Notes: generated from the sequence alone by a model not told the origin. A stretch of DNA of 41,112 bases from an uncultured Clostridia bacterium (GCA_937897215.1 CALCBQ010000049.1:1-41112); one strand, 5' to 3'; positions 7,794 through 26,847 are shown, numbered from the stretch's first letter. Numbers and translations are program-made.

Positions 7794-7941
7794 AAATAAA
7801 CACCTCTTTAACGAAATTAAAAATGCGGACAGAAATTCTGCCCGCACCATTACAAATCAAACTTTTTAGTAAAGTATTGACCGGTCAACTCTAAGCCGAC
7901 GGGTGAGAACAAAAAACTGTTCTGCTTTATTTTGCTTTGTT
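7794..7941 (-). promoter_or_regulatory. infC-rpmI-rplT 5' leader, L20-leader-like transcription attenuator
   Basis: A ~145-nt leader lies between a consensus promoter and infC. It contains several hairpins (AGAACA-gttttt-TGTTCT; palindrome TTGACCGGTCAA) and ends in an intrinsic terminator. This matches the position and logic of the Firmicute L20-responsive leader. Confidence 0.5.
7815..7846 (-). terminator. Leader (attenuator) terminator upstream of infC
   Basis: Minus-strand UGCGGGCAG-aauuu-CUGUCCGCA (9 bp including one G-U) followed by TTTTTAATTT. It lies between the promoter and the infC Shine-Dalgarno. Confidence 0.65.
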
Positions 7942-12294: not shown

Positions 12295-13563
12295 TTAATA
12301 TGTTTCCTTAAGACCTTGTTCATCAAACAAGAAAACAGTTTCAAGAACAATTTTAAGTACATCCTCAACAGTTTTCATTTCAAGCATTTTAACTGTATCA
12401 AGACGAGTGTGATAATATCTTGCAGGAGCAGGGTCCATACTTGTAAATGCTACTGATTTAATACCACCCTGTTGCATTGCTGCAGCGTCAGTTGAGCCGA
12501 GTGGTGTTGTTGTGAATTTAACAGGTACTTCTGCGTTTTCTGCCGCTTTTTTCATAAGAGCACAAGCAGATTTATCAAGTTTAACTGTTGCAGTCATATC
12601 TTTTGTAACAACGCCCATAAATTCGTAATCGCGAAGTGTATCAAGTGCTACGAAAACAGTTTCAACACCGTCGTTTTTATATTCGTTTCCGTGCAATTCA
12701 GCAAATGCTTTTGAGCCACGAAGACCTTCTTCTTCAGCACCCATTGATACTGCAATAACTTCAGTATTTTCAAAACTGATATTGTTATTTTTGAGATAAA
12801 GAAGAACTGCCATAGATGTAAATACACCTGTTAAATCGTCATTTGCGCCGTCAACTACTAATTTCCAGTTTACAAAGAAGATTACAGATGCCAAGAATGG
12901 CACTACAATCGCCTGTAACACGATTAACACGATATTTGCACTACTGTTGTCTATAAACATACCAACAATGCCTACAACGAGGGTTAAGAGAAGTCCTAAA
13001 ACTGCACCTGCAACAACTGCTGTAACCATTTTAGGTCCACCTATATATGTATAACGCCATTCATAAGCAGAGTCAATGTGTCCGCCAATGATAATTCTTC
13101 TTTTAACTTCGCCTTTTGCTTTGATTTTGCAGATTACATTGCTTGATTCTTCTTTTTTGAAGAATGGGTCAAGCACTTTTTTGTAAAGCAAAAATTCGCC
13201 AACAAGGAAAAATATTGAGATTACACAAAGTGCAATAGAAGCAATGTGGAATGCATTTGCGAGTTCAGGCACTGCGCCTGTGTATGCTACAATTCCTAAA
13301 ACTGCCGCAATTAAAGCAAGAATACCGTCAATTGTAACCCAACTCATAAACGCTTTTGGGCTTAATGTGAAATTCTCTCTTGTAACTTCATCGGCAATAG
13401 GAGTCATTACTTTTTCAACATAATCCTGAGCCTTTTTTTCGCCCTCATAACCCGCAGGGCGAGGACCCACCTGCTCACATACTCTTTTTATTTCACGAAC
13501 TGCAAAGTTTGAACATTCGCGCACTTTAGAAGCGTAATGAGCGTTACTTTCACTTGCTTTCAA
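12295..13563 (-). CDS. Membrane-embedded M28-family metallopeptidase
   Basis: M28 metal-ligand motifs are present (IIGGHIDSAY, GANDDLTGV, GAEEEGLRGS, ARYYHTRLD), interrupted by several TM helices. The start is TTG, with GGAGGT 8 nt upstream. Confidence 0.8.
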   Translation of the reverse strand: MKASESNAHYASKVRECSNFAVREIKRVCEQVGPRPAGYEGEKKAQDYVEKVMTPIADEVTRENFTLSPKAFMSWVTIDGILALIAAVLGIVAYTGAVPELANAFHIASIALCVISIFFLVGEFLLYKKVLDPFFKKEESSNVICKIKAKGEVKRRIIIGGHIDSAYEWRYTYIGGPKMVTAVVAGAVLGLLLTLVVGIVGMFIDNSSANIVLIVLQAIVVPFLASVIFFVNWKLVVDGANDDLTGVFTSMAVLLYLKNNNISFENTEVIAVSMGAEEEGLRGSKAFAELHGNEYKNDGVETVFVALDTLRDYEFMGVVTKDMTATVKLDKSACALMKKAAENAEVPVKFTTTPLGSTDAAAMQQGGIKSVAFTSMDPAPARYYHTRLDTVKMLEMKTVEDVLKIVLETVFLFDEQGLKETY

Positions 13564-13618
13564 GAATAATTACCTCCAAAAAGGCAAAACACTTTGCCAC
13601 AATAATATAATTACAATT

Positions 13619-13647
13619 ATATTAACACATTTTTTATGTTAAGTCAA
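13619..13647 (-). promoter_or_regulatory. Candidate promoter for the M28-lipoprotein unit
   Basis: Minus strand reads TTGACT, a 17-nt spacer, then TGtTAATAT. Confidence 0.35.
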
Positions 13648-13736
13648 TTTGAAAAGGTTGCAAATATTGACATCGCGGTAAAAAAAGAATAAACTATATG
13701 ATGTTAAAAAGAAATTTATCTCTAAGGACTTAAAAT

Positions 13737-14564
13737 ATGAAAAAAAGACGATTAAAAATACGGCTTGCTCTACTTGTAGCATTAGTTTCAATTCTTGGGC
13801 TTTTATTAATTTTATTTGCAGTTTTCTGTCGCGGTGGCAACTACAACGAGGTTGAAATCACAACAGAATCAACCACCGTAGAAGAAACTACCACACTACC
13901 ACCTGTACCTGAAGAATCAACTACAGAAGAAGAAAGCACAACCGAACCCGAAACTACAACAAAACCACCTGTAAAGTGGGATAATTATAATCCAATTGAG
14001 GTACTTAACAGTGAAAACTGGGCGACCGCTCTTATCAGTAAAAAATATCCGTTAGGCAAATCATACAGTCCCACTCTTGCACCTGTCGTTGACGGCAGTT
14101 CAGTTACTGCAGACACAAGAGTTTCTGATGCATACAAACTTATGTATGCAGATGCATTGGCACAAGGAGTTGTACTGACACCATATTCCGGATACTGTAG
14201 TTATTCTCGTCAACAATCAAACTATGAAAACAAAGTTCAGGCATTTATTTTGCAAGGTATGACCGAAGACGAGGCAAAGCAAAATGCAGAAAAACGAATT
14301 GAACCAGCAGGAAGTAGCGAAAACGGTGCAGGTCTCAGTGTTGATATTGTAAGTGCAAGTGCAGGATTTGCATCAACTAACGAATACAAATGGCTTGTAA
14401 ATAATGCTCATAAATACGGATTTGTTCTTCGTTACCCTGAGGATAAAACAGAAATCACAGGAATGATTTATCAACCATGGCATTGGCGCTATGTTGGTGT
14501 TGATGCTGCAAACGAAATGAAATCAAATAATCTTTGTTTGGAAGAATACCTTGAAGCAATATAA
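13737..14564 (+). CDS. VanY/M15B-like D,D-carboxypeptidase homolog with substituted active-site residues
   Basis: N-terminal TM anchor, Thr/Glu-rich linker, then a VanY-type domain (YGFVLRYPEDKTEITGMIYQPWHWRYVG). At the expected SGYRS, SxHxxGxAxD and ExxH motifs it reads SGYCS, SSENGAGLSVD and QPWH. Confidence 0.85.
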   Translation: MKKRRLKIRLALLVALVSILGLLLILFAVFCRGGNYNEVEITTESTTVEETTTLPPVPEESTTEEESTTEPETTTKPPVKWDNYNPIEVLNSENWATALISKKYPLGKSYSPTLAPVVDGSSVTADTRVSDAYKLMYADALAQGVVLTPYSGYCSYSRQQSNYENKVQAFILQGMTEDEAKQNAEKRIEPAGSSENGAGLSVDIVSASAGFASTNEYKWLVNNAHKYGFVLRYPEDKTEITGMIYQPWHWRYVGVDAANEMKSNNLCLEEYLEAI

Positions 14565-14611: not shown

Positions 14612-14647
14612 TGACAAATCAAAAAAGCCACTCGTGTTGAGTGGCTT
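14612..14647 (-). terminator. Intrinsic terminator ending the large surface-protein operon
   Basis: Minus-strand AAGCCACTC-aacac-GAGTGGCTT followed by TTTTTGATTTG. Confidence 0.75.
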
Positions 14648-14665
14648 TAATTTTTGGTTAAATCT

Positions 14666-15691
14666 TTATTCTGCAATAATCTCGCGTTCGTCTTCTTCGT
14701 CTTTTTTACGTTTGAAGATAATAAGGATGAAGAAGAACAAACTTAACCCCATAACTGAACCCATTATAACAGGATTTTCAAATACTTCTACAAAAGTATC
14801 CGGAATCGGAATAATTGGTGTTGGCTTAACCGGTCCACCGATTGTAATTATTACACCATCTTTATCTTCATCTTTTGGGTCTGTTTCAGGCTTTGGAGTC
14901 GGCTTATCATCAGGATTGCCGTCCGGGTCCTCAAAATCGGGATTATCAGGGTCGCCCGGGTCTGTATCATCAGGGTCTATGTCAGGCTTGCCATCGTTAT
15001 TATTATCGAGTATATAGAAATCAAGATATATTTTATCGGCATCAAGTGGAATAATAACTACTTGTGTACCGTCAGATGCTGTTGTAAGCTCAGGCTTGTC
15101 AACATCAGCTCTTACTATTACAAAAGATGTGTTTGCAAGTACTTCGCCATCTTTTGAAATCTGCACAAGGTGTTTACCATCTGCAATATCTTCAACAGAG
15201 TATCTGCCGTCTGCGTTAGTTTTTGCTGTTGCGCTGCCGAAATCAAAACTTAAAGTTGCATCTTTAAGTTCTTTATCTCCAAAATACACAGTACCTTCAA
15301 TATCTACCTTGCCACATTTATCATTTGCATCGTCAGAGCACTTTTCAAAAGTAAACTCAACAAGGATATCTGTATTAATATCTGTGATTTTAAGATTTCC
15401 GTCTATATACTGATTTGTTACATCAGTGCCGTTGATTTCAATGGTATCAAGATGATAGCCATTTTTAAAAACTGCACCAAGGTCGATTTCACCAAATCTG
15501 TTAATTTTGAATTGTGTACCATCAGGGCAAAGTTTACCATTTACAAGCACATAACCACCATCATTATAAACAACGGTTACTGTATGCTCATCAGGAACAA
15601 CAGTTGAAATAGTTGTATTACTTGCAAATGACGGTATAGCCATAGCAAACACTATAGCTAATGCCATAATAATACTTAATGCTTTTTTCAA
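14666..15691 (-). CDS. Secreted stalk protein with C-terminal membrane anchor (last gene of the operon)
   Basis: Signal peptide ends at SFA. There is a repeat-like beta domain (HTVTVVYNDGGYVLVNG...GYHLDTIEINGTDV) and a CarboxypepD_reg/Cna-B-like segment (GTVYFGDKELKDATLSFD...TNADGRYSVEDIADGKHLV). A long Asp/Pro-rich linker (DPDDTDPGDPDNPDFEDPDGNPDDKPTPKPETDPKDEDKD) precedes a TM helix and a charged tail (KRKKDEEDEREIIAE). Confidence 0.8.
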   Translation of the reverse strand: MKKALSIIMALAIVFAMAIPSFASNTTISTVVPDEHTVTVVYNDGGYVLVNGKLCPDGTQFKINRFGEIDLGAVFKNGYHLDTIEINGTDVTNQYIDGNLKITDINTDILVEFTFEKCSDDANDKCGKVDIEGTVYFGDKELKDATLSFDFGSATAKTNADGRYSVEDIADGKHLVQISKDGEVLANTSFVIVRADVDKPELTTASDGTQVVIIPLDADKIYLDFYILDNNNDGKPDIDPDDTDPGDPDNPDFEDPDGNPDDKPTPKPETDPKDEDKDGVIITIGGPVKPTPIIPIPDTFVEVFENPVIMGSVMGLSLFFFILIIFKRKKDEEDEREIIAE

Positions 15692-15736
15692 TGAAATCCA
15701 CCTCCTTAATTATTTTCTTATTATAAAAACAATTAA

Positions 15737-16234
15737 TTAAGCTTCATAAGCTACTGTGTATGTGATTGTACCAGTATATGCGCCAACGGGAGCAGCATCA
15801 AAACCTGCAACTGTAATTGTTGCATCTGTACCACCAACATCAGATGCTTTTGCACCGTCATTTACACCTGTAAATGTTGTTTCACCTGCACCAGCAAGTG
15901 TGTATTTAAGTGTTGCTGTTGTTTCTGCGTTTTTCATAACGCCATTGTTTGCATCGTCAGTATCTGAGTCATAGTTTACTGCAACTTTAAGGCTTGCACC
16001 AACAAGAAGCTGTGATGTAACTGTATAGCCTACTTCATAAGCTGTTGTTTCATCATCCCAAGCAACAGAAATTGTTGCAGGAATTTCAACGGTATATGAT
16101 GTGTCAGTTGATTCGTTAAATGATGTTTCAACGTTTACTGTATTGTCGCCAAGAACAGCAGTTGCTGCAAATGCAGGAACTGCAACTGCCATCATCATTA
16201 CGAGTGCTAATGCAATAGAAATAATCTTTTTCAT
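15737..16234 (-). CDS. Small secreted paralog P7 (165 aa) of the tandem family
   Basis: Signal peptide MKKIISIALALVMMMAVAVPAFA. Family motifs YTVEIPATISVAW, YTVTSQL, LKVAV, LKYTL and C-terminal VGAYTGTITYTVAYEA. Confidence 0.85.
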   Translation of the reverse strand: MKKIISIALALVMMMAVAVPAFAATAVLGDNTVNVETSFNESTDTSYTVEIPATISVAWDDETTAYEVGYTVTSQLLVGASLKVAVNYDSDTDDANNGVMKNAETTATLKYTLAGAGETTFTGVNDGAKASDVGGTDATITVAGFDAAPVGAYTGTITYTVAYEA

Positions 16235-16261
16235 AATAACTTACTCCTTTGAGTATAAAAA

Positions 16262-16747
16262 TTAAACGATTTCTGCTGTGAATGTAAGTGTATCTGTGTA
16301 GTTATCGATTGCAACTGATTTCCAGTCACCAAGAGCAATTTTAACTGTTACACTTGCAGTATCATCATAAACTGCAGAAGGTGCTGTAAATGTTGCGTTA
16401 TCAAGTGTGTAAGCAAGTTCGCCACCATTACTTGTCATTTTGTAAGCTGCGTCAGCGTCAGCAACTGTAACTTTAACAGCTTCGCCTGTTTTAAGCTGAC
16501 TTGCAACTGTATATTCAATGTCTTTTGATTCTGTTTCCCAAGGAAGTGTCTGAGTTGCAGGAATTGTAACTGTGTACCAAGCAACTTCAGTATCGCCGAT
16601 ACCGTCGTTATCAGTATCTTTCTTTGTGTCTGTATTGATGATTGTGTCGTTACCTGCGTTTGAGCCACCTGTAACAGCAGCAAAAGCAGGAACGCAAATT
16701 GCCATCATCATAACAAGTGCCATTGCGAGTGCTAAAATCTTTTTCAT
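16262..16747 (-). CDS. Small secreted paralog P6 (161 aa), with DxDxDG loop
   Basis: Signal peptide MKKILALAMALVMMMAICVPAFA. DTDNDGIGDTE insert at aa 44-54. Motifs YTVTIPATQTLPW, YTVASQL, VKVTV, LAYTL and YTDTLTFTAEIV. Confidence 0.85.
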   Translation of the reverse strand: MKKILALAMALVMMMAICVPAFAAVTGGSNAGNDTIINTDTKKDTDNDGIGDTEVAWYTVTIPATQTLPWETESKDIEYTVASQLKTGEAVKVTVADADAAYKMTSNGGELAYTLDNATFTAPSAVYDDTASVTVKIALGDWKSVAIDNYTDTLTFTAEIV

Positions 16748-16766
16748 GTTAATTTACCTCTTTTTG

Positions 16767-17231
16767 TTAAATATTTGTAAGCTCTGCGCTGAATGTTAAC
16801 GTTCCTATATAGTTATCAATTGAAGCTTTGTCCCAATTAGCAGTAGGAATTTGCACCACTACGCTTGATTTTTCTGCATTTTCAGGAAGAATAACAGATT
16901 TTGTTGTAGTGTACTGATTTGTACCACTCTTTAATGAATATTCAAGGAACGCAGTATTTGCTGCATTTTTCATTTTGCCGTCTGCATCAGCATCAACTGT
17001 AACTTTTACGCCTTTACCTGTTGCTAACTGACTATAAACTGAATATTCAACCGCTTTTTCGGTTTGTCCCCAAGTAATTGTTGCAGTAGCAGGAATTGTT
17101 ACTGTAAAAGATGCGCCAACTGTTGAGCCGTCAACTCTTACAGGAGTACTACCAACATATTCAGCAAATACAGGAACACAAATTGTGAACATTAACACGA
17201 TTGCAAGAGCCAATGAAAGTACTTTTTTCAT
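16767..17231 (-). CDS. Small secreted paralog P5 (154 aa)
   Basis: Signal peptide MKKVLSLALAIVLMFTICVPVFA. Motifs FTVTIPATATITW, YSVYSQL, VKVTV, LEYSL and YIGTLTFSAELTNI. Confidence 0.85.
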   Translation of the reverse strand: MKKVLSLALAIVLMFTICVPVFAEYVGSTPVRVDGSTVGASFTVTIPATATITWGQTEKAVEYSVYSQLATGKGVKVTVDADADGKMKNAANTAFLEYSLKSGTNQYTTTKSVILPENAEKSSVVVQIPTANWDKASIDNYIGTLTFSAELTNI

Positions 17232-17251
17232 ATTAAGCCCTCATTTCAAAA

Positions 17252-17719
17252 TTATGCATTAACAAGTTCTGCTTCAAATGTGATTGTTCCTTCATAAGTT
17301 GCAATTGAAGCAGCTGCCCATTCACTTGCATCAATTGTAAGATTGAATGCATGAGGTTCGTTGTTTACAACTGCACTTTTTGCAAGACCTGTTGTAGCGT
17401 CAGCAACTGCAAATTCGATTGTTTCGTTTGCAGCGTTTGTAAGGTCTTTTGATTTTGCAAGAGTAACTTTTACGCGTTTGTCTGTCTGCACCTGACTTGT
17501 AATCTTGTATGTGCCTTCTTTTGTTGTGTCGCCCCAAATAAGGTCAACTGATGCAGGGATTTCAACTGAATATGTGCCGTCGCCCTTGTCAGTAATACCG
17601 TCAACTAAAACTGTTGAATTGCCTGACTGTGTTGTAGCATTAAGTGTGCCTGCAAAAGCAGGAACCATAATCGCCATCATCATAACAAGAGCAAGAGCAA
17701 TTGAAATAATCTTTTTCAT
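17252..17719 (-). CDS. Small secreted paralog P4 (155 aa)
   Basis: Signal peptide MKKIISIALALVMMMAIMVPAFA. Motifs YSVEIPASVDLIW, YKITSQV, VKVTL and YEGTITFEAELVNA. Confidence 0.85.
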   Translation of the reverse strand: MKKIISIALALVMMMAIMVPAFAGTLNATTQSGNSTVLVDGITDKGDGTYSVEIPASVDLIWGDTTKEGTYKITSQVQTDKRVKVTLAKSKDLTNAANETIEFAVADATTGLAKSAVVNNEPHAFNLTIDASEWAAASIATYEGTITFEAELVNA

Positions 17720-17744
17720 AAATCTTATCTCCTAGCTGTTAAAA

Positions 17745-18227
17745 TTAAGCGTCAACAACTGTTGATGTAAATGTAAGTGTATCGCTATAAGTGTCGATAG
17801 CAGCAGCATTCCAAGCTGATTCTTCAACAACAATGCTATATGTGAATGTTGCATTTTCAGCTGTAACAACAGGGCTTGTTGTTTTTGCTGTAGTTGTACC
17901 AGTAAGTGTGTAAGCAAGAGTAGCGTTTGTAGCGTTTAACATATTGAGTCCATCGCCTGTATCAGCAACTACAACCTGAACACATTTACCTGTTCTGAGA
18001 TTTGAGTCAACTGAATAGCTGAAGTTTGTTGTAACTGTGTTCCAAACAATATTCATTGTTGCAGGGTAAGTAACTGTGTAAGTACCGTCGCCTGTGATTG
18101 CAGATGTATCTGTAACTACCTGTGCAGTACCTGACTGTGTTGTAGCATTAAGTTCAGCTGCAAATGCTGGAACCATAATAGCCATCATCATAACAAGTGC
18201 CATTACTAAAGAAATAACTTTTTTCAT
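17745..18227 (-). CDS. Small secreted paralog P3 (160 aa)
   Basis: Signal peptide MKKVISLVMALVMMMAIMVPAFA. Motifs YTVTYPATMNIVW, YSVDSNL, VQVVV, LAYTL and YSDTLTFTSTVVDA. Confidence 0.85.
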   Translation of the reverse strand: MKKVISLVMALVMMMAIMVPAFAAELNATTQSGTAQVVTDTSAITGDGTYTVTYPATMNIVWNTVTTNFSYSVDSNLRTGKCVQVVVADTGDGLNMLNATNATLAYTLTGTTTAKTTSPVVTAENATFTYSIVVEESAWNAAAIDTYSDTLTFTSTVVDA

Positions 18228-18257
18228 AATCTATATCTCCTTTAATTATTTATAAAA

Positions 18258-18758
18258 TTATACTCTTTCAATTTCTGCTGTGTATGTGAGAATATCTTTA
18301 TATTCTTCAACAACTGCTGAATTCCAGTTATCTGCAGTAATATTAACATTAACTGTCTTTGTTGCTGCAGGATAAATTGTAGGTACTGTTGAATTGAAAG
18401 CAGCGCCTTCGCCTACGAGAGCGTATGCAATTTCATAAGCACCGTCATTTGTTTTCATAACGCCTGCACCTGATACTGTAACCTTAACTCTACCATCTCT
18501 CTTAAGGTGTGATTCAACTGTGTATGAAACATCAGTGTCTTCTGTACCCCAAGGGATTGTTGTGTCAGCAGGAATTGTAACTGTGTATTCTTCTGCATCT
18601 GTGTCGCCGATACCGTCATCGTCAGTATCTTTTAATGTTGATGTGTTGATGATAACATCTGCCTCATCAGGATTTGCATTAAGTTCTACTGCAAATGCAG
18701 GAACCATAACAGCCATCATCATAACAAGTGCCATTGCGAGTGATAAAATCTTTTTCAT
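18258..18758 (-). CDS. Small secreted paralog P2 (166 aa), with DxDxDG loop
   Basis: Signal peptide MKKILSLAMALVMMMAVMVPAFA. DTDDDGIGDTD insert at aa 44-54. Motifs YTVTIPADTTIPW, YTVESHL, VKVTV, IAYAL and YKDILTYTAEIERV. Confidence 0.85.
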   Translation of the reverse strand: MKKILSLAMALVMMMAVMVPAFAVELNANPDEADVIINTSTLKDTDDDGIGDTDAEEYTVTIPADTTIPWGTEDTDVSYTVESHLKRDGRVKVTVSGAGVMKTNDGAYEIAYALVGEGAAFNSTVPTIYPAATKTVNVNITADNWNSAVVEEYKDILTYTAEIERV

Positions 18759-18797
18759 AATTGTTTTCTCCTTTATATAAAGATTAAATTTACTATT

Positions 18798-19247
18798 TTA
18801 GACCGCATCGGTATATTCAGCAGTGAATGTTAAAATATCACTGTGTTTACCGCTTGCGGCATGAAGCCATTCATTATCTTCAACCTCTACTGATAGAGTG
18901 AAGCTTTCACCATAATCACCAGGGAAGAAAGAGATGTTGCCGCTTAATAAACTGTATGCGATAGTTTTCTCACTATCTTTTTCGTTTACCAAATTATAAT
19001 TGTTTTGCGAAGAAACTGAAACATTTACCATTTTGTCAGGTTCAATAAGCATTTTTGTTGCTGTTACTTCGCCAATATCCATAGCAGTTGTCTGCCACGG
19101 AATTTCAATGTCTGCAGGATAAGTCAACTCGTATTCTACTGCATCAGCCTTTGTGGAAATCTCCATTGACTGGTTACCTGCAAATACTGGTGTAACGCAA
19201 AGTGTAAGCATTACAATCGCTAATCCTACGGAAAAGAATTTTTTCAT
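18798..19247 (-). CDS. Small secreted paralog P1 (most divergent member)
   Basis: Signal peptide MKKFFSVGLAIVMLTLCVTPVFA. Motifs YELTYPADIEIPW, VNVSV, IAYSL and HSDILTFTAEYTDAV. I prefer the ATG at 19247 because GGAGGAG lies 9 nt upstream; the ORF-track ATG at 19256 abuts the Shine-Dalgarno. Confidence 0.8.
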   Translation of the reverse strand: MKKFFSVGLAIVMLTLCVTPVFAGNQSMEISTKADAVEYELTYPADIEIPWQTTAMDIGEVTATKMLIEPDKMVNVSVSSQNNYNLVNEKDSEKTIAYSLLSGNISFFPGDYGESFTLSVEVEDNEWLHAASGKHSDILTFTAEYTDAV

Positions 19248-19268
19248 TTCTGTCATCTCCTCCCCTTA

Positions 19269-22200
19269 TTAACTTGTTACGTCGACTGTATAAGTCAACT
19301 GCGTACTATATGCGCCAACAGGAACATTGTCCCAAGCGGTTTGCTCAATCTTAATGCTTGGTTTATCTGGTGGTGTTGTGCCTGTTGCCACATCGCCTGT
19401 AAATGTTGTTTCTTTAAAGTTTGTTGCCGTGAAAGCAAGTGTATGTGTGCCTGTTGAATCAACAAGCTTACCTGCTTCTGCACCTGAATCTTCAACACTT
19501 ACTAAAAGTTTTTTGTTAGCAAGTGATGCTTCAACTGAGTAAGAAACATCAACATTATCAGTTGTGTCCCAATCAACCTGAACTTTTGCAGGGATTGTAA
19601 CTGTGTAAGCCGTAGCAAGTGTACCAGTAAATGTTACAGGTAATTCCAGTGTTGCAATCGGAACAAGGTCTGCGCCTGTAAGCCCCGCATCAATATCTGC
19701 AGTTTCATAAACATTAAAGGTAATTGAGCCTTCATAAACTGCATCTTTAGGAACAGCACTTGCAATAGTTGAGTCAACTGCAATTTGAAGCGGAACTCTT
19801 GCAAAAACTTCGTCAGGATACAAGTTATCGTATTCTCCCAATGTCAACGGAGTATCTGCTGTAAGACCGTCAACAGTGAATGAGTTAAGGTCAGCAAATG
19901 TTGTGCCCGAAGTTTGTGTAAGCTTTAAATCTGAAACTGCTTGAAGTGTAACTGTTGTGTCAAGCAATGCTGCAATATACGACAAATCAACATAAGCAGT
20001 ATCTTTCATTGACTCTTCGTCGTTATTATTAAGTGTAACTGTAGCCAATGAACTACCATCTGTTTCAGCATCCATAATTGAAATATCACTTACAGAGAAC
20101 AATCTGACAATTTTCTGTTCAAGCTCATAAAGCTCTTCAACATTATAATAAGCAGGTAAAAATGAGTTGTATTCGTCAAGAATGTCTTTTACATATTGAA
20201 GCTCATCTGCTGAGAAACGAACCCTGTTTGCAATATGTTCACTTGCAATATTATAAACTGTCTGCAATTTTTCTTGGAAAGTAAGAATACCACCTTTTAT
20301 TTCCTCACCATCAATGTTATAGGTTTCGGTATTTTTAAGGAAATAAGTGAAACCACGGGATGTATTCTTAAGCTGTGGATAAATTGAACCGTCGTCAATA
20401 GAAGTTTTTGAATAATATTGTAACGGACTATAGTTATCTCCAAAGAATTTTTCTACACTATCTCTGTCAGCGATGCTTAAGAAATTACCAATTTTATAAT
20501 TATCAGAATCAGTAACACTTTCGTCCTTATCATCAAGTATACCGTCATCTTCATAATCGTATTTCACATTATACAAATCGGTAATCTTAGGAAGGAATGC
20601 AAGAGCTTCATTCTTGATGTTTTCAAGAGTTACAGTCATTCTCATTGCCATATTATAGGCATTTAAGAACTGTTCTTTCACCGTTGGGTCAAGAACGGTA
20701 TTTTTCTGACTTACTGTATATCTGCTGTAACTTTCTTTATAGTATTTAATAATTTCTTCAGCTTTAGCCTTGTCAATTCCCATAGAAGCATAGTTTGGAA
20801 TCGGCACTTTATTACCTGCATCATCTTCGCCTATAACAAATCCCGGATAAGGAATGTCACTTTCGCCGTCAACTGTAGTTGTTCTTATAACTTCAGGAAG
20901 AGAGTTTACAAAATCCGTAAGCTGAGCAGGGTCATAATTAGGCGGCAGAATTTTCGTAGTGTCATTAGCATATTCTGCATATGAATCAAGAACCGCCTTT
21001 GCTTCTGTTACCTTTCCCTGTTGGAAAGGCACAAGAGCGTTATACTTTGCAAGTGCATCATCATATCTCGCTTTAATTGTTGCTGCATCATAAGGGTCAA
21101 TAGCCTTAACTGCCTCTTCAAACTGCTTAGCAGGAAGTGATTTTGCATTAAATACTTCTGCATAAGATTTGTCACTTCTTGTTGAATAAGCTGAATACCA
21201 ATCTGAATAAGTAAAACCTACATTATCGAAAATAACGCTCTTCTCATCAAGAGAATCGCCATTTACACCTGCAATACAGAACTGAACAGCAAAGATGTTG
21301 TTCAAATATGTTGCATTTTCGTCCATCTTGGTTTCGCTGGTTGTCATACCCAAAATCGAACTTTCCTTAACCTTAATGTGATAAAGAGGAATCATAATAT
21401 ATCCCTTATATCCATCCAGACCAAGCGCGTCTCCCCAAGCAGAGTTTTGGGCTGAATTAAATACATACTGGCTAGTTGTGTGGTTAAGAATCCATTGGCC
21501 TTGTGTTGGCGAACCTTCCTTGGAATCAAGAATGAAGTATTTCCAGTTTTCTTTTTTGTAATTTTCACCACCAAGAGTGGCATCGCCCATATTAACACGA
21601 GCCTTAATAAAGCGACCGTTTCCATCGTGTGTAAAAAGATTAACTGTAAAATGGAAGTTTTTAATTTTAGAAAAGTCTACATAGAAAACGATTGAAAGTG
21701 GGGTCTTTTCAGTACCACCTGTATATTCTCCCTGAGCAAGTCCACCAAGGTTTACTCCTGACATATTGTTGCTATAGCCAGCGCCTATTGGGTTTCCATC
21801 TTTTGTAAGCGTAACTGTATGGTAAGAACCATCGTTTTCAGATGCAGTAAACGCACTATCTACATAAAGGTTTGCACCCTTAGATTTCATATATCCTTCG
21901 TTCGTAATGGTTGCCCAAGATGCATTATAATTCACCTTGCCATCCATTGCCTCTTGACTCTTATCCTCATCTGTTGTTACATATCCATAATAGTCACTAT
22001 CTGTAATATTAGCCGTGCCATTTGTTGTGTAAGTAACAAGACTCTTAGTATGTCTCCAGTCATTTGCAAGATTACTTGTACCTGCTACCACACCATTGGC
22101 ACTCTGAAATCCTGTAGTGTAAGCATCTTGGTTATCTTCAAGCTGCCAAGCTTTTTCACCAATTTCGTATTTCTCAAAATCATTGAATACTATGAACGGA

Positions 22201-24434
22201 TTGTCTGCAAGCTGTTGACCAACTATAAAGTCGTCTTCTATTTTTTCAGTACCATCAAGGAGTGCTACATATTTAAGGATTTTTTCTTCTTCAGCTTTAC
22301 CTAACATATCAAGCTGACCAATGTTTAAGAGAGCATACGCTTTCCAGATTTTAATGATTTCTATACGAAGAGCATCACTAACAGATGAAATATTTTCAGG
22401 TGCAGGAAGTTTTTCCATAGCACGAATAATAAGAGGAACAAGTTCGTTTCTATCTGCATTAGCACTACCATAAGTTCCTGCTGCTACGCACTTTTCATAA
22501 GCATCCCAAGCTTTTGCCCAGGAATCTCTGCCAAGCTTCTCAGCCGCTGCCGCAAGACCTATGCCATCACCATCGTCCGTCTTATCAAGAGATAAGAATG
22601 CGGTATCTCTACCCTTTGACTCATAAATTTGTCTATATGTTTCAATTAAATCAAAAATGTACTCGATTTCACGATAGTCAGCCCAGTCAGGGTCTTCTAT
22701 ATATTTATCAATCTCATCAAAAATAATTCTTGAAATTTCTAATGCTTCGTCATAATAAACTGACATAGGGTCGCCGGTGTTTGGTTTATTGTTAAGAGTG
22801 TTCTCTGTATACTTATCATACTTATCGTCATTTTCACGATAGAAGAAGATGTTATCAACATAGAAGCTATGTTGAAGACTGTCTGCTGAACAACCCTCAA
22901 TAGAAAAACCTGCGTTGTAGATATCTTCAATAGCTTTAAGACCTGCTTCTCTGTTCTGAACCATACCATTTGCTATGTAAGCACGGTCAGCTGAATAATT
23001 TCCCGTTGTAACAGTTGTCTTTGCTTGAGTCTCATCAAGTGGAACTGCAAGCATAAAACCTGCTTTTGAATAATCAATAGGAGGATTACCGTTTGTGTAG
23101 CTTTGCTTCAAATGTGTAATTCCGTCAGCATTGAACAAATATAAGTGTCTGTCGCCTCCATTCATAAAACCTGAACTTGAGCGTAAACCTCTGCGGTGAA
23201 TCAGAAGTGCATCCTGTATACTTGTACCCGCTTTGTCAACAGTAATTTTACCAAAAGTCATTGACCTTAGCCAATTTTGAACATCAGAATCCTGAACGGT
23301 GTTATTAATACCACTTTTATAATCGTGTCCTGCCGCCAAGTCCTGATTACTGATATCTATATAAGAATCAGTTTCCGAACACATAAACTTAAGAGGTACA
23401 CGTACATAACCTTTGAAGTTGCCAATATCAGCAGTACCATCAGCATTAAGCATAACCTTATTCCATCCACCGTCTTCACGCTGAACATATACATAAGGGT
23501 CCTCGCCTGTGTATGTTGGAGCCGCTGTACCTTTTGTTGAATAAACTATAGAACCAACTCTCTGATAGGTATCAAGAGTTGTATCATCATCTATCCACTC
23601 TAACCACATTTTTTCATTTGTACGAAGTCTGAAAGATACGCCTTTAAGCTCTACATTTGTAAGGTCCATCCAATACCACATTTCTGTAGCACCCTTATAA
23701 TCCCATGTTGAACGAGAATAAGAGGTGTCAAAAATCTGTGTGCTTGTTGGCTGATTATTCATTATAAAACGAAGGGCCTTGGTATCACCAATATTATCTG
23801 TCAAATCCTCTGTACCGGCTTCAGACGCAGTTCCCATATAAAGTAGTTGACCGCCTGTAACCACACCGTCGTCTGTTCCACCACTTTCAAAAGTCATAAT
23901 TTCACGAACGGCTGTATTACTTGTTGAAAATCCTTCAAATTTTTCAGGGTCAAGACCGATTGCAGGAATATCCGAAACAGTTGCATACATTGACTGTGAG
24001 AACCAATTTTCGTTATCAACTGCTGTGATTGTTACGCTGTAGCGATTGTTCTCAAAATCAATTGTGCCAATATCGGCTGCCTTGAAGGTTGCTGATGTTC
24101 CTGTTACTTTAATTGTATCAAGAACATTCTTTTGGTGAACCGCATTCTTCGCACCCATATCAACAAGTTCAAGAATATAAAAAGCAATAGTTGTTGTCTC
24201 ACCCTTGAATGTTTCTTTAGGTGTAGCTGCCGGAAATTCTACCTGAATATTTCCGTCATCATCAAGCCACGCATCAGCACCTTGTTTAATAGCATCCTCA
24301 CTGAAATATGGTGCAGGGTCATAGGAGCCGGGAATTATTTCCGCGCCCACCATCATAAACGGTATGGATGCAATAATCATTACCAACGCGAGTGCGATAG
24401 CTATGCACTTTTTGGAAGATATTTTTTTCTTCAT
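19269..24434 (-). CDS. Giant secreted surface protein (1721 aa) whose C-terminal module is homologous to the small paralogs
   Basis: Signal peptide MKKKISSKKCIAIALALVMIIASIPFMMVGA. Two internally duplicated beta-sandwich-like modules (aa ~165-533 and ~745-1076) end in FYVDNIFFY and VIFDNVGFTY. A long helical Tyr-rich middle follows. The last ~113 aa read AYTVTIPAKVQVDW...SYSVEASL...LLVSV...LAFTA...VGAYSTQLTYTVDVTS. Confidence 0.85.
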   Translation of the reverse strand: MKKKISSKKCIAIALALVMIIASIPFMMVGAEIIPGSYDPAPYFSEDAIKQGADAWLDDDGNIQVEFPAATPKETFKGETTTIAFYILELVDMGAKNAVHQKNVLDTIKVTGTSATFKAADIGTIDFENNRYSVTITAVDNENWFSQSMYATVSDIPAIGLDPEKFEGFSTSNTAVREIMTFESGGTDDGVVTGGQLLYMGTASEAGTEDLTDNIGDTKALRFIMNNQPTSTQIFDTSYSRSTWDYKGATEMWYWMDLTNVELKGVSFRLRTNEKMWLEWIDDDTTLDTYQRVGSIVYSTKGTAAPTYTGEDPYVYVQREDGGWNKVMLNADGTADIGNFKGYVRVPLKFMCSETDSYIDISNQDLAAGHDYKSGINNTVQDSDVQNWLRSMTFGKITVDKAGTSIQDALLIHRRGLRSSSGFMNGGDRHLYLFNADGITHLKQSYTNGNPPIDYSKAGFMLAVPLDETQAKTTVTTGNYSADRAYIANGMVQNREAGLKAIEDIYNAGFSIEGCSADSLQHSFYVDNIFFYRENDDKYDKYTENTLNNKPNTGDPMSVYYDEALEISRIIFDEIDKYIEDPDWADYREIEYIFDLIETYRQIYESKGRDTAFLSLDKTDDGDGIGLAAAAEKLGRDSWAKAWDAYEKCVAAGTYGSANADRNELVPLIIRAMEKLPAPENISSVSDALRIEIIKIWKAYALLNIGQLDMLGKAEEEKILKYVALLDGTEKIEDDFIVGQQLADNPFIVFNDFEKYEIGEKAWQLEDNQDAYTTGFQSANGVVAGTSNLANDWRHTKSLVTYTTNGTANITDSDYYGYVTTDEDKSQEAMDGKVNYNASWATITNEGYMKSKGANLYVDSAFTASENDGSYHTVTLTKDGNPIGAGYSNNMSGVNLGGLAQGEYTGGTEKTPLSIVFYVDFSKIKNFHFTVNLFTHDGNGRFIKARVNMGDATLGGENYKKENWKYFILDSKEGSPTQGQWILNHTTSQYVFNSAQNSAWGDALGLDGYKGYIMIPLYHIKVKESSILGMTTSETKMDENATYLNNIFAVQFCIAGVNGDSLDEKSVIFDNVGFTYSDWYSAYSTRSDKSYAEVFNAKSLPAKQFEEAVKAIDPYDAATIKARYDDALAKYNALVPFQQGKVTEAKAVLDSYAEYANDTTKILPPNYDPAQLTDFVNSLPEVIRTTTVDGESDIPYPGFVIGEDDAGNKVPIPNYASMGIDKAKAEEIIKYYKESYSRYTVSQKNTVLDPTVKEQFLNAYNMAMRMTVTLENIKNEALAFLPKITDLYNVKYDYEDDGILDDKDESVTDSDNYKIGNFLSIADRDSVEKFFGDNYSPLQYYSKTSIDDGSIYPQLKNTSRGFTYFLKNTETYNIDGEEIKGGILTFQEKLQTVYNIASEHIANRVRFSADELQYVKDILDEYNSFLPAYYNVEELYELEQKIVRLFSVSDISIMDAETDGSSLATVTLNNNDEESMKDTAYVDLSYIAALLDTTVTLQAVSDLKLTQTSGTTFADLNSFTVDGLTADTPLTLGEYDNLYPDEVFARVPLQIAVDSTIASAVPKDAVYEGSITFNVYETADIDAGLTGADLVPIATLELPVTFTGTLATAYTVTIPAKVQVDWDTTDNVDVSYSVEASLANKKLLVSVEDSGAEAGKLVDSTGTHTLAFTATNFKETTFTGDVATGTTPPDKPSIKIEQTAWDNVPVGAYSTQLTYTVDVTS

Positions 24435-24473
24435 ACTCTTCTTCCTTTCTGTTTCTAATCTATATAAAGTAAA

Positions 24474-25292
24474 TTATTTTACAATAAGGTCTGTTTTAAC
24501 AACAAAATTGTTGAGTGGTGTTCTTGCCTGGTCATAAGAATATGGCTGTTGATGAACAATCGCTTTATATTCTCCTGCCGGGAGTGAACGGGAAATCTTG
24601 AATCTTGAAACTGAATAACCCGGTTGAACAAGCCCTGACTGATAAAGTTTTTCATCAGACTCATCAATAATACCGTTTTCATTACCATCAAGATAAATTG
24701 TGAATACAACAAAGCAGATGCCCTTGTTCTTCTCAGAGTTTGAAAGAATAAAGTTCTGTTCAACCTGACCCGCTTTGAAATTAATCTGAGCAATACCGTT
24801 CATTGTAACATTCTTTGAGCCCATATCTTCAACTTTATCAGGTAAGTCAAGCTCACCTAAACCTTGTTGCTGGTCAGCATCAAGATAATTAGGGTCCGTT
24901 GTGGAAGGTTCATCATCGCCACCACCAATCAACATTCCCAAGCCCGCAATCAAGCCCACAAGAACGAGAAGCCCTAAAACTATCATTGCAACAATGGCTA
25001 TAAGATTATCTTTTTTAACTGCAATAAACGAGCCGGACTCAAGCTCAATATAACCTATTGTTTTATATCTTGCAGAAGTTGTTGACTTGTAAACAATTTC
25101 TTCAATATCATTTGAAGTGATTGTGCCGATTTCATCTTTTCCATAAGCCAACTGACCAACTACACGAATACCACCGTCTGGGTAAAGGGCTTTCATTTCT
25201 TTAACGGTATAACAACCAATTTCAAACCCAGTATCTTTATTATAGTATGACTCTATATAGTCGTTGCCTTGTTTAACATTAAATACTGCCAA
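24474..25292 (-). CDS. Bitopic membrane protein (first gene of the operon)
   Basis: TTG start with AGGAGGG 7 nt upstream. The layout is a ~95-aa N-terminal cytoplasmic domain, one TM helix (IAIVAMIVLGLLVLVGLIAGLGMLIGG), an acidic linker and a ~135-aa extracytoplasmic beta-rich domain ending LPAGEYKAIVHQQPY...VVKTDLIVK. Confidence 0.75.
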   Translation of the reverse strand: MAVFNVKQGNDYIESYYNKDTGFEIGCYTVKEMKALYPDGGIRVVGQLAYGKDEIGTITSNDIEEIVYKSTTSARYKTIGYIELESGSFIAVKKDNLIAIVAMIVLGLLVLVGLIAGLGMLIGGGDDEPSTTDPNYLDADQQQGLGELDLPDKVEDMGSKNVTMNGIAQINFKAGQVEQNFILSNSEKNKGICFVVFTIYLDGNENGIIDESDEKLYQSGLVQPGYSVSRFKISRSLPAGEYKAIVHQQPYSYDQARTPLNNFVVKTDLIVK

Positions 25293-25351
25293 AACAGTAC
25301 CCTCCTAAAAATGAAGATAGCTATAGATAATAATCCTATTATAGATACTAT

Positions 25352-25381
25352 ATTTTACCTCAACACAACACTACTTGTCAA
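25352..25381 (-). promoter_or_regulatory. Candidate sigma-A promoter of the surface-protein operon
   Basis: Minus strand reads TTGACA (25376-25381), an 18-nt spacer, then TAAAAT (25352-25357). A perfect TATAAT lies 9 nt further downstream as an alternative -10. The promoter lies just after the terminator of the upstream operon. Confidence 0.45.
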
Positions 25382-25400: not shown

Positions 25401-25440
25401 GAACAGAAAAACCCACGCAAATTCGACAATCTGCGTGGGT
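25401..25440 (-). terminator. Intrinsic terminator after the SPFH gene
   Basis: Minus-strand ACCCACGCA-(12 nt)-TGCGTGGGT followed by TTTTTCTGTTCATTTTTT. Confidence 0.75.
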
Positions 25441-25483
25441 TTTATTAGTTATTAGTCATATTTAGACAATGTGTTTTATTTTT

Positions 25484-26377
25484 TTATTTTTTCACAAGTT
25501 CTGTAAGAGATGTTGCAAGGCCTGCAAGTCCCTGAATTTCTGATGGGATAATAATCTTTGTAGCCTGACCATCAGCTGCTTTTTCGAATGATTCAAGAGC
25601 TTTAATACTGATAAACTCTTTACTTGGATTTACCTTGTTAATCATTTCAATACCTGCTGCAGTTGCTTCCTGAATCTTAAGGATTGCTGCTGCCTCGCCT
25701 TCTGCTTCACGGATTTTTGACTCTTTAACAGCATCAGCACGAAGAATTGCAGATTCTTTTTCGCCTTCTGCAACAAGGATTGCTGCTTTCTTTTCGCCTT
25801 CTGCCTGAAGAATCTTTTCACGGCGTTCACGCTCTGCCTTCATCTGTTTTTCCATTGAATCCTGAATTTCTTTTGGAGGCATAATGTTTTTAAGTTCAAC
25901 ACGATTAATCTTGATGCCCCAAGCGTCTGTTGCTTCGTCAAGTACTGTTGTGATTTTTGAATTGATTACGTCTCTTGATGTAAGAGTTGCGTCAAGTTCC
26001 ATATCACCAATAATATTACGAAGTGTTGTTGCTGTAAGATTTTCAATAGCCATCATTGGTCTTTCAACGCCATAAGTGTAAAGTTTAGGGTCGATAATTC
26101 TGTAGAAAACAACTGTATCAATTGACATTGTAACATTATCTTTTGTAATAACGGGCTGTGGTGGGAAATCCACAACCGCTTCTTTAAGGCTTACTCTTTT
26201 TGCTACTCTGTCAATAATAGGGATTTTTACGTGAATACCTGTATCCCATGTTGTGTGGTATGCACCAAGGCGCTCAATAACATAAGCATTTGCCTGTGGT
26301 ACGATGATTACGTTTTTAATGATGATTGCAATTACAAGCACTGCGATGATAATAAAAGGTGTAATAATAAATTCCAT
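25484..26377 (-). CDS. SPFH/Band-7 (stomatin/prohibitin-like) membrane protein
   Basis: N-terminal TM helix followed by an SPFH core (VIERLGAYHTTWDTGIHVKIPIIDRV...VVFYRIIDPKLYTYGV) and an Ala/Glu/Lys coiled-coil tail. AAAGGAG Shine-Dalgarno. Confidence 0.92.
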   Translation of the reverse strand: MEFIITPFIIIAVLVIAIIIKNVIIVPQANAYVIERLGAYHTTWDTGIHVKIPIIDRVAKRVSLKEAVVDFPPQPVITKDNVTMSIDTVVFYRIIDPKLYTYGVERPMMAIENLTATTLRNIIGDMELDATLTSRDVINSKITTVLDEATDAWGIKINRVELKNIMPPKEIQDSMEKQMKAERERREKILQAEGEKKAAILVAEGEKESAILRADAVKESKIREAEGEAAAILKIQEATAAGIEMINKVNPSKEFISIKALESFEKAADGQATKIIIPSEIQGLAGLATSLTELVKK

Positions 26378-26400
26378 AATTTTTCTCCTTTAATAAATAA

Positions 26401-26847
26401 TTATTTAGTTATAACGAGCGTTGTTCCCTCAACGCTTATTATTTTAACTGATTGGTCTTTTTCTATTTTTTCGCCATTTTGAGTTTTTGCTTTCCAATAA
26501 ATGTCGCCTACAAGCACTTTACCATTAAGCCCATCTGTTTCTTCTGTAGTTTTACCGTATTTACCGATAAGCTTACTATCTGCACTGACTTCGTCTTTAT
26601 CTTTTTTTATGTATTTCTTGTAAACCTTACGAGAAATAATCATAGCAATTATGCTTAGTATTACAAAGACGAGCACCTGAACAAGAAAACTATCAACTAC
26701 TAAAGACACAAGACAAGTAAGAAGCGCTGCAGGTACAAACCATATTGATACAAGTGCCGCCGTTGAAAGTTCAATTATAAGCGCTACAACACCCACGGCA
26801 ACCCACAATGCCCAAAGATTTTCAAAAAAGAATTCCAACTCTTTCAC
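26401..26847 (-). CDS. NfeD-family membrane protein
   Basis: Multi-TM N-terminus plus a C-terminal OB-fold (GKVLVGDIYWKAKTQNGEKIEKDQSVKIISVEGTTLVITK), immediately upstream of the SPFH gene (the classical NfeD-SPFH pair). The ORF-track start is GTG. An in-frame TTG at 26838 has better AAGGAG spacing. Confidence 0.85.
   Translation of the reverse strand: MKELEFFFENLWALWVAVGVVALIIELSTAALVSIWFVPAALLTCLVSLVVDSFLVQVLVFVILSIIAMIISRKVYKKYIKKDKDEVSADSKLIGKYGKTTEETDGLNGKVLVGDIYWKAKTQNGEKIEKDQSVKIISVEGTTLVITK

Follow-up and report, generated by a model that had tools for sequence, protein, structure and literature searches.

A stretch of 41,112 nucleotides (nt) from an uncultured Clostridia bacterium (GCA_937897215.1 CALCBQ010000049.1:1-41112), hereafter called the window, meaning the whole of the DNA that was analysed, contains a unit of ten genes, g1 to g10, at positions 14612-25381. 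This ten-gene feature is real, conserved and unannotated, and the four protein families that it encodes, a bitopic membrane protein (g1), a secreted giant of 1721 amino acids (aa; g2), seven small paralogous proteins (g3 to g9) and a stalk and anchor protein (g10), are all orphans. The interpretation which we favour, and to which we give about an even chance, is that the products of the operon are exported by Sec and build a membrane-anchored surface appendage of several subunits, that this appendage is independent of chaperone, usher and sortase and that its subunits are joined non-covalently by strand complementation. The gene order and its conservation, the common module, the secretion signals and topology, the resemblance in fold and the lack of known machinery are what the analysis shows; polymerisation, the order of the subunits, the roles of g1 and g10 and an adhesive function are what we infer.

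Ten co-oriented open reading frames (ORFs) lie in series on the minus strand between 14666 and 25292. The features of the unit, in the direction of transcription, are:

25408..25443, minus strand: terminator of the upstream SPFH-like gene, with a 16-bp stem and then a T-run; delimits the unit on the upstream side
25352..25381, minus strand: promoter-like site TTGACA-18-TAAAAT upstream of g1, 11/12, top score in the region
24474-25292, minus strand: g1, bitopic membrane protein of 272 aa (ORF and hydropathy); proposed assembly or platform factor
19269-24434, minus strand: g2, secreted giant of 1721 aa (ORF), ending in the shared module; proposed as the distal cargo or adhesin
19272..19676, minus strand: C-terminal pilin-like module of the giant, approximately residues 1587-1721 (BLASTP against g9); aligns with the seven small proteins
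18798-19256, minus strand: g3, small subunit of type 3, the most divergent, directly after the giant; proposed adaptor to the giant
18258-18758, minus strand: g4, small subunit of type 4, with a calcium-site-like loop insertion, DTDDDGIGD
17745-18227, minus strand: g5, small subunit of type 5 (ORF, alignment, array position)
17252-17719, minus strand: g6, small subunit of type 6 (ORF, alignment, array position)
16767-17231, minus strand: g7, small subunit of type 7 (ORF, alignment, array position)
16262-16747, minus strand: g8, small subunit of type 8, with a loop insertion, DTDNDGIGD
15737-16234, minus strand: g9, small subunit of type 9, array-terminal; the subunit modelled with AlphaFold2
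14666-15691, minus strand: g10, stalk and anchor protein of 341 aa (ORF, hydropathy, homolog alignment)
14615..14648, minus strand: intrinsic terminator closing the unit, AAAGCCACTC-loop-GAGTGGCTTT then TTTTGATTT

The gaps between successive genes, from g1 to g10, are 39, 12, 39, 30, 25, 20, 19, 27 and 45 nt, and a purine-rich Shine-Dalgarno sequence (GGAGG/AGGAG-like) precedes all ten start codons, being weaker at g7 and g8. All ORFs were found where the original prediction, which had been made from the DNA of the window, had placed them, with gaps of 12-45 nt and a Shine-Dalgarno sequence for each gene. The likely start of g3 is its second ATG, at 19247 (MKKFF..., 149 aa), because the Shine-Dalgarno sequence abuts the first ATG and the public orthologs are called with 149 aa. 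The predicted promoter is situated in the sole sizeable intergenic gap, right after the terminator of the upstream gene, and the closing terminator 3' of g10 (14648-14624) consists of a 10-bp stem and a T-run, so that the unit is bracketed by a promoter-like site and a strong terminator in the way proposed earlier. Promoter-like sites as a class were barely above chance (55 found, 43.8 ± 6.1 in shuffles), so the assignment of the promoter is based on its position and score and not on a statistical argument. The earlier statement that internal terminator hairpins are absent stands as regards strong ones; two weak 6-bp stems do occur, both within coding sequence (25047-25029 and 15824-15806). 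The GC content of the operon is 0.37-0.40 and that of the whole window 0.38.

Hydropathy identified N-terminal signal-like segments, i.e. Sec-type leaders, in g2 to g10, which agrees with the claim that nine of the ten products are exported by this route. The expected absence of LPXTG-type and pilin-type sequences also held, since a regular-expression scan of the ten operon proteins for LPXTG, NPXTN, LAXTG and YPKN was empty.

The giant profile was used to survey one genome per species and yielded 46 loci, including that of the window. The order g1, giant, 4-11 small genes, g10 was found in the 45 other species-level genomes wherever the contig allows, so the predicted single Sec-dependent unit is a conserved one. 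All the loci come from gut metagenome-assembled or uncultured genomes, assigned to Ca. Fimenecus, Eubacterium sp. CAG:180, Ruminococcaceae/Oscillospiraceae, Acutalibacter or 'Clostridia bacterium', and the identity between giants falls to 23-25 % across them. The g1-type gene is always the first of the cluster and was found at 44/46 loci, and g10 is the last gene at 35/46 loci, most of the others stopping at a contig edge. Beyond these genes, the flanks of the 46 loci share no conserved family; the most frequent one is present at 12/46 and reflects the local synteny of close relatives. A signal peptidase, usher, chaperone or ATPase is not conserved near any of the 46 loci, and no sortase was found in the window or at the 46 loci by Pfam searches of the operon proteins, clustering of the flanks or a TLxTC scan for a plausible sortase ORF. 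The original prediction had noted that no sortase, dedicated signal peptidase, usher or ATPase is encoded in the unit, and the survey extends this to its neighbourhood.

The small genes occupy fixed positions in the array. Type 3 is always next to the giant, followed by type 4 and then type 5, and type 9 is terminal wherever the array lies wholly inside a contig. The array of the window is the single series 3-4-5-6-7-8-9. At nine loci (L004, L005, L007, L009-L012, L035 and L043) the series 3-4-4-5-x-9 is followed by 6-7-8-9, both series ending in type 9, and the 6-7-8-9 block looks like a second series added in some lineages. The fixed positions of the paralog types indicate non-redundant roles, and the array is a set of components that diverged from each other long ago, not one of interchangeable or recently duplicated variants. 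An ordered heteromer is favoured by this arrangement, and in this respect the original prediction, which had regarded the small proteins as 'alternative' subunits, has to be corrected: they are positionally conserved, diverged types with a g3-type first and a g9-type last.

Full-length alignment gave 21-31 % identity between the small proteins and g3, and as mature proteins they share 16-35 % identity with g9. All seven have in common the motifs Y-T-V-T-I-P-A, I-x-W, S-Q-L, V-K-V-T-V, L-x-Y-T-L, W and Y-x-D/G-T-L/I-T-F/Y-T. The mature N-terminus carries a conserved strand motif, h-x-V-x-T (V-x-T-x-T), and a loop of variable sequence lies between this strand and the core. In g4 and g8, DTD(D/N)DGIGDT(D/E) is inserted in the loop after the N-terminal strand and is kept in their orthologs; the pattern is that of a thrombospondin-type-3 or dockerin-like calcium site (DxDxDGxGD), and residues 43-75 of g8 gave a weak match to the Binary_toxB calcium-binding domain (Pfam, E = 0.095). 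The giant ends in the same module. Its residues 1595-1717 matched g9 in BLASTP with E = 4e-11 and 35 % identity, which bears out the proposal that the C-terminus of the giant carries the motifs of the small proteins.

An exhaustive HMMER scan of 1.84 billion representative proteins, counted as clusters at 50 % identity, showed the module family to be large, with 906 clusters at E ≤ 1e-3 and 312 at E ≤ 1e-10. In all the matches listed the module is at the extreme C-terminus, and it occurs alone (approximately 150-190 aa), in proteins of 238-473 aa and in giants of 1226-1866 aa, the library giants matching the module profile solely at this end. A profile of the most divergent, g3-type members retrieved only further unnamed orthologs. 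The mid-size proteins have N-terminal parts of the BspA-type LRR_5 (leucine-rich repeat, LRR), ubiquitin-like or leukocidin-like kinds, and orphan genes for such module-bearing cargo (LRR and ubiquitin fusions) are located far from any cluster. BspA-type LRR_5 proteins with a C-terminal module (L050:8001-9389, P0162; also P0163, P0173 and P0174) are encoded among housekeeping genes, which shows that the module also serves as a C-terminal tag on proteins that do not belong to the operon. A cohesin-domain protein is encoded two genes downstream of this LRR_5-module gene and a sortase gene is present at the edge of its contig. The ubiquitin fusion (L047:8001-8717, P0205; also P0220) is a secreted protein of 238 aa composed of a MKK/VPAFA-type signal peptide, a ubiquitin fold (Pfam ubiquitin, E = 2e-26) and the module; its gene, which adjoins those for MurL and a Mur ligase, occurred on 15 contigs. 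It would be a surface-displayed bacterial ubiquitin-like protein, which is unusual.

The leaders of the small proteins end in AFA in five cases and VFA in two, as had been stated earlier. Among 124 proteins with at most 50 % identity to each other, conservation is higher in the signal peptide, MKKxxSxxLAxVMxxAxxVPAFA, than in the mature domain, with a mean majority-residue frequency of 0.66 in the leader compared with 0.40 in the core. The conserved leader corresponds to the first 23 codons of g3 to g10 (15737-19256 and 14666-15691), and in hhalign comparisons of the small proteins with g10 only the signal peptide aligned (96.8 % over 25 columns). Such conservation, and the sharing of the leader with g10, hints at a dedicated recognition or processing step. 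Common ancestry of the module with g10 was rejected, as the signal peptide alone aligns, and common ancestry with g1 was rejected because hhalign aligned nothing. Leaders containing C-V-P-A-F-A were also considered as those of lipoproteins, which was rejected since the Cys varies between members and the residue at -1 does not fit.

A first, independent AlphaFold2 model of low depth, for which the eight paralogs served as the alignment, reached only a predicted local distance difference test score (pLDDT) of 65, and its best matches in the PDB were AfaE, DraE and DaaE, then EcpA and CfaE; Ena2A fibres were far down the list. With 79 homologs, the model of g9 had a pLDDT of 93.3 and a predicted template-modelling score (pTM) of 0.82. 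Chaperone-usher subunits made up approximately 24 of its top 28 Foldseek matches in the PDB, led by the CS17 pilin 8ehs (E = 0.018, probability 0.99). Others at the top were SafA, the FimH pilin domain with the FimG N-terminal extension, CsuA/B, CsuE, FocH, SefD, HdaB, FimA, FimG, FimI, the complex of FimD-N, FimC and a truncated subunit (3bwu) and Caf1; DraD and AfaE were lower, at ranks 39-43. Ena was absent from the 50 matches listed for this model, and a Foldseek search of the module model against viral structures gave nothing. The N-terminal h-x-V-x-T segment was modelled with a pLDDT of 83-94 and no sheet assignment. The likeness of the g9 model to chaperone-usher pilins is consistent but weak, and is no proof of homology. 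The comparison of predicted structures, suggested together with the original prediction, thus placed the small subunit nearest to chaperone-usher pilins, Csu included, with weak scores, and the 'strand-exchange type fibre' proposed at that time has become more than a guess.

The g1 protein has a conserved cytoplasmic N-domain of approximately 91 aa, a transmembrane (TM) segment at residues 92-126 and an extracellular C-domain of approximately 145 aa. Hydropathy gave this single internal TM segment, with KK on its N side and DDE on its C side, which indicates an N-in topology. There are 24 invariant columns over 31 homologs, and the exact product of 272 aa with a TTG start occurs in public gene calls.

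The g10 protein consists of a signal peptide, a conserved, beta-rich N-region of approximately 200 aa (CarboxypepD_reg-like), an Asp/Pro-rich linker, the sequence IPIPDTF...ENP, a TM segment (residues 306-327 by hydropathy) and the tail KRKKDEEDE. The N-region and the C-terminal TM segment are conserved in 35 g10 homologs. Matches to CarboxypepD_reg-type sandwiches were recurrent yet sub-threshold in Pfam, occurring in 14/26 family members, and neither WxLIP_PGBD nor WxLIP_HBD matched g10 or 25 of its homologs. The C-terminus of g10 (14666-14830) is laid out like a degenerate sorting signal, with a motif, approximately 20 hydrophobic residues and the KRKKDEE tail. Distant homologs (L013-L042) have (I/V)(I/S/A)KTG then ..ENP, and over the family the motif varies between PDTF, PNTS, PDTS, KTG and NLG. 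The claim that g1 and g10 are the only membrane tethers is upheld in that both TM segments were confirmed, and is weakened by the resemblance of the g10 tail to a sorting signal in homologs, which makes sortase-independent anchoring less than certain. Residues 118-126 of g10 (15310-15340) include an invariant C-x7-C (FEKCSDDANDKCGK), present in 26/26 aligned homologs; in an extracellular protein of an anaerobe, such a pair could form a disulfide or bind a metal.

None of the ten proteins reached the curated cut-offs in Pfam-A or NCBIfam. PADLOC gave no match for them and PHROGs a single weak, unnamed one (E = 0.0043); prophage and defence-system readings were dropped, as these four libraries gave sub-threshold noise only. 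Pfam was also scanned one by one with 134 diverse module proteins, 18 giants, 31 g1 homologs and 26 g10 homologs, and no family was found for the module, the giant or g1. The stray sub-threshold matches were SCPU in 2/134 module proteins (E = 0.0098), Fimbrial_CS1 in 1/134 (E = 0.0044) and, for g9, DUF4402 (E = 0.42). No library match to DUF3992/Ena was obtained in the ten proteins or the 134 module members. Sequence and profile searches of the PDB with the module, giant, g1 and g10 gave nothing meaningful, the giant having neither a Pfam nor a PDB match and g1 none in Pfam, NCBIfam or the PDB. Public records label these proteins 'hypothetical protein', and in full-text searches of the literature no system of this kind was described for Clostridia. 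Neither the curated libraries, among them Pfam and NCBIfam, nor the literature searched contains any of the four protein types, and the assembly appears to be as undescribed as was originally supposed.

In the mechanism which we propose, the building block would be the Ig-like module of approximately 130 aa, the closest structural relatives of which are chaperone-usher pilins. The giant would be the distal cargo or adhesin, joined through its C-terminal copy of the module in the manner of a two-domain tip adhesin, and the seven positionally fixed small paralogs would form an ordered series of adaptors or shaft subunits. At the base, g10 would contribute beta-sandwich domains, an Asp/Pro stalk of wall-crossing length and a C-terminal TM anchor, with g1 acting as an assembly or holding factor at the membrane through its conserved, extracellular, beta-rich domain. 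The subunits may be linked non-covalently, by beta-strand complementation with the conserved N-terminal h-x-V-x-T strand, and assembly would proceed without periplasmic chaperone, usher or sortase. Module-tagged proteins encoded elsewhere, such as the LRR and ubiquitin-like cargo, might dock onto the same structure. A bolder version, in which the operon represents an unrecognised class of Gram-positive pilus with donor-strand subunits that are remotely related to chaperone-usher pilins and self-assemble on the cytoplasmic membrane without chaperone, usher or sortase, an adhesin tip of 1700 aa, a TM stalk as its root and the module as a genome-wide tag for unrelated cargo, such as the secreted ubiquitin-like protein and the BspA-type LRR proteins, has a substantial chance of being right, though well below even.

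Several observations weigh against an appendage of this kind. No curated pilin model matched the ten proteins or the 134 module members above threshold, and the Foldseek scores are weak (E ≥ 0.018, TM-score 0.33-0.52, root-mean-square deviation 5-15 Å); Ig-like sandwiches are common. The monomer model of g9 is complete and confident, and an open acceptor groove is not evident in it. The cargo fusions and the giant both retain the putative donor strand, for which a chaperone-usher tip adhesin has no need, and h-x-V-x-T may therefore be simply strand A of the fold. Finally, the distant module-bearing cargo genes are no less compatible with a domain for general targeting or anchoring than with a pilin.

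Such a domain is central to an explanation along the lines of the WxL proteins, in which no fibre is formed: the module would be a non-covalent retention domain binding peptidoglycan, a wall polymer or g10/g1, which we regard as a serious rival, though clearly less probable than the appendage. The corresponding picture of the small proteins as a wall-bound platform or stabilisers, with the giant and the orphan cargo displayed on the wall, is equally tentative. The gene content of the operon does parallel that of Csc/WxL clusters (PMC9772566, PMC10599100). The C-terminal position of the module among all matches listed, the orphan cargo genes outside clusters and the completeness of the modelled domain as a monomer would also be accounted for. 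There is also a resemblance between the terminal strand of the module, Y-x-D/G-T-L/I-T-F/Y-T, and the distal block of WxL domains, Y-x-x-x-L-T-W-x-L. However, the WxL Pfam model misses the ten window proteins (E up to 1) and the 134 module members and 18 giants (E up to 0.1), and the first WxL motif, D-x-R-G-T-x-A-G-W-x-L (PMC9772566), is absent; the original prediction had already described the WxL signature as missing, and neither the model nor either of the two motifs was matched by the operon proteins. Moreover, g10 lacks the WxLIP domains, the nearest solved folds are those of polymerising pilins, and a role as mere wall platforms does not easily account for 4-11 small paralogs in fixed positions, when WxL clusters have one or two.

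The remaining alternatives concern parts of the system or its role. Covalent anchoring to the wall, in which a housekeeping sortase with its gene at another site would cleave the C-terminus of g10, as a divergent cell-wall sorting signal, and attach the protein to peptidoglycan, is suggested by the motif, the approximately 20 hydrophobic residues and the KRKKDEE-type tail of g10 homologs, the distant ones of which, with (I/V)(I/S/A)KTG..ENP, resemble LPXTG-E..NP sorting signals such as that of M protein. We consider it unlikely, as the g10 of the window reads IPIPDTF, with no Gly after the Thr, the motif varies over the family, LPXTG is absent from the ten proteins and the searches for a sortase in the window and at the 46 loci were negative. 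Somewhat less likely still is a complex for substrate capture or nutrient acquisition, with the giant as a scaffold that binds or degrades polysaccharides and the small proteins as lectin-like components. The hosts are gut fibre-associated Oscillospirales, a role of this sort was first proposed for Csc clusters (PMC1534035), and the beta-rich blocks of the giant ending in '..DN(I/V)xF(Y/T)' recall carbohydrate-binding modules (CBMs), although this is a sequence impression only. On the other hand, no carbohydrate-active enzyme (CAZyme), CBM, cohesin or dockerin model in Pfam matches the giant or its 17 homologs, and a sugar transporter or regulator is not conserved near the 46 loci. Such an explanation bears on what the complex does and is compatible with the mechanism of assembly proposed above. 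An Ena-like endospore appendage or exosporium fibre is very improbable. Clostridia can sporulate, and Ena2A did occur far down the list of the first, low-confidence fold search, but all subunits have Sec signal peptides, the promoter-like site is of the sigma-70 type, DUF3992/Ena was not matched, Ena is missing from the 50 matches listed for the confident model, and a membrane-anchored base protein is ill-suited to assembly in the mother cell.

The genes on either side of the operon look like housekeeping genes and are syntenic in close relatives only. Upstream (25484-26847, minus strand), SPFH/band-7-like and NfeD-like proteins are encoded, and downstream (12295-14564) a VanY-like D-Ala-D-Ala carboxypeptidase-like protein and a membrane M28-like peptidase, the translations having been judged by eye in both cases. 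Rfam revealed no regulatory RNA in the leader of the operon. Elsewhere in the window it matched only an L20_leader (7811-7933, minus strand; 59.4 bits, gathering score 58.7), which lies upstream of a ribosomal-protein operon and is unrelated to the surface operon.

The textbook fibres of Gram-positive bacteria are sortase pili, type IV pili and TasA-type fibres. If the proposed mechanism is true, a chaperone-usher-like pilin assembled without chaperone or usher would be a further route to a fibre in these bacteria, and would bear on the origin of donor-strand fibres on either side of the monoderm/diderm divide. Ca. Fimenecus (CAG-180) and related Oscillospirales are common in human and animal guts and uncultured, and the operon is their most conspicuous candidate for an adhesion or colonisation apparatus. 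The module itself is a large unannotated family (approximately 900 clusters at 50 % identity) which deserves a curated model and which, being carried by unrelated cargo as a C-terminal tag, points to a display system with potential for exploitation.

Chaperone-usher pilins polymerise by donor-strand complementation, and their pili are made up of a two-domain tip adhesin, minor subunits in a fixed order and a terminator. Of the solved folds, those of chaperone-usher pili (type 1/P, class 5 CS1/CS17/CFA-I, archaic Csu/CupE) are nearest to the small subunit, if only weakly, and the operon products have in common with these pili a C-terminal pilin-like domain on the proposed distal protein, several ordered minor-type subunits, Sec-dependent export and a C-terminal strand G-x-Y-x-G-T-h-T-h-T. 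In contrast to these pili, the host is monoderm, no PapD-like chaperone or usher was found (Pfam/NCBIfam, flanks of the 46 loci), a stalk protein with a TM anchor would be the base and the N-terminal strand is kept in the cargo-bearing proteins. Prealbumin-like and CarboxypepD_reg-type sandwiches are typical of Gram-positive surface stalks, and the sandwiches of this type in g10 are shared with sortase-assembled pili, as are the Gram-positive host and the proposed logic of tip, shaft and base. The operon differs from such pili in having no LPXTG, pilin motif or cluster sortase, and its subunits are single small domains of a different fold. It is also unlike TasA/camelysin systems, as there is no Peptidase_M73/TasA, SipW or TapA match (Pfam/NCBIfam) and no gene for a SipW-type peptidase in the cluster or its flanks.

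WxL/Csc clusters often include a small LPXTG protein. Those of Lactobacillales resemble the operon in having domain-only small proteins, a large protein with the same C-terminal domain and an Ig-like protein with a C-terminal TM segment, and in belonging to gut commensals. The differences are that the module has no match to the WxL Pfam family (PF13731) or to either WxL motif, its consensus being YTVTIPAxxxIxW(G/D/E), with one conserved Trp and no D-x-R-GTxAG context; the distal aromatic residue is Phe/Tyr with no following x-L, so that only the spacing and pattern of the distal strand are reminiscent. DUF916 (PF06030) and DUF3324 (PF11797) are absent from g10 and 25 homologs, and the operon has many more small paralogs, an additional N-in bitopic first gene and hosts among the Oscillospirales, not the Bacilli. 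The characterised clusters contain a small WxL protein, a large WxL protein and WxLIP, which consists of DUF916, DUF3324 and a TM segment (PMC9772566, PMC10599100). For these, AlphaFold predicts that a strand from the anchored partner inserts in trans into the WxL domain (PMC10599100), and it is at this point that the explanation along WxL lines and that of a fibre converge.

Donor-strand filaments formed on a cytoplasmic membrane without a chaperone have been described as haloarchaeal tafi, which have the tip TafC, the adaptor TafE, the shaft TafA and the C-terminal TM anchor TafF (PMC11821415), and further as archaeal threads (PMC9715654), bundling pili and TasA (PMC9245690) and cannulae (PMC12518558). 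Tafi-type filaments have FimA-like subunits, a tip with an extra domain, an adaptor, a C-terminally anchored subunit and accessory membrane proteins, and no chaperone or usher, all of which the operon matches in architecture only, as an analogue and not a member. Unlike tafi, the operon is bacterial and its products are exported by Sec, not Tat (MKK leaders, no RR), its proposed distal protein is far larger, and one major subunit is replaced by 4-11 distinct small paralogs. By analogy, the parts list of the operon mirrors these single-membrane filaments more closely than it does chaperone-usher pili, and the type of system has known analogues, as a module-sharing surface assembly of tip, adaptors and anchor that is probably strand-complemented.

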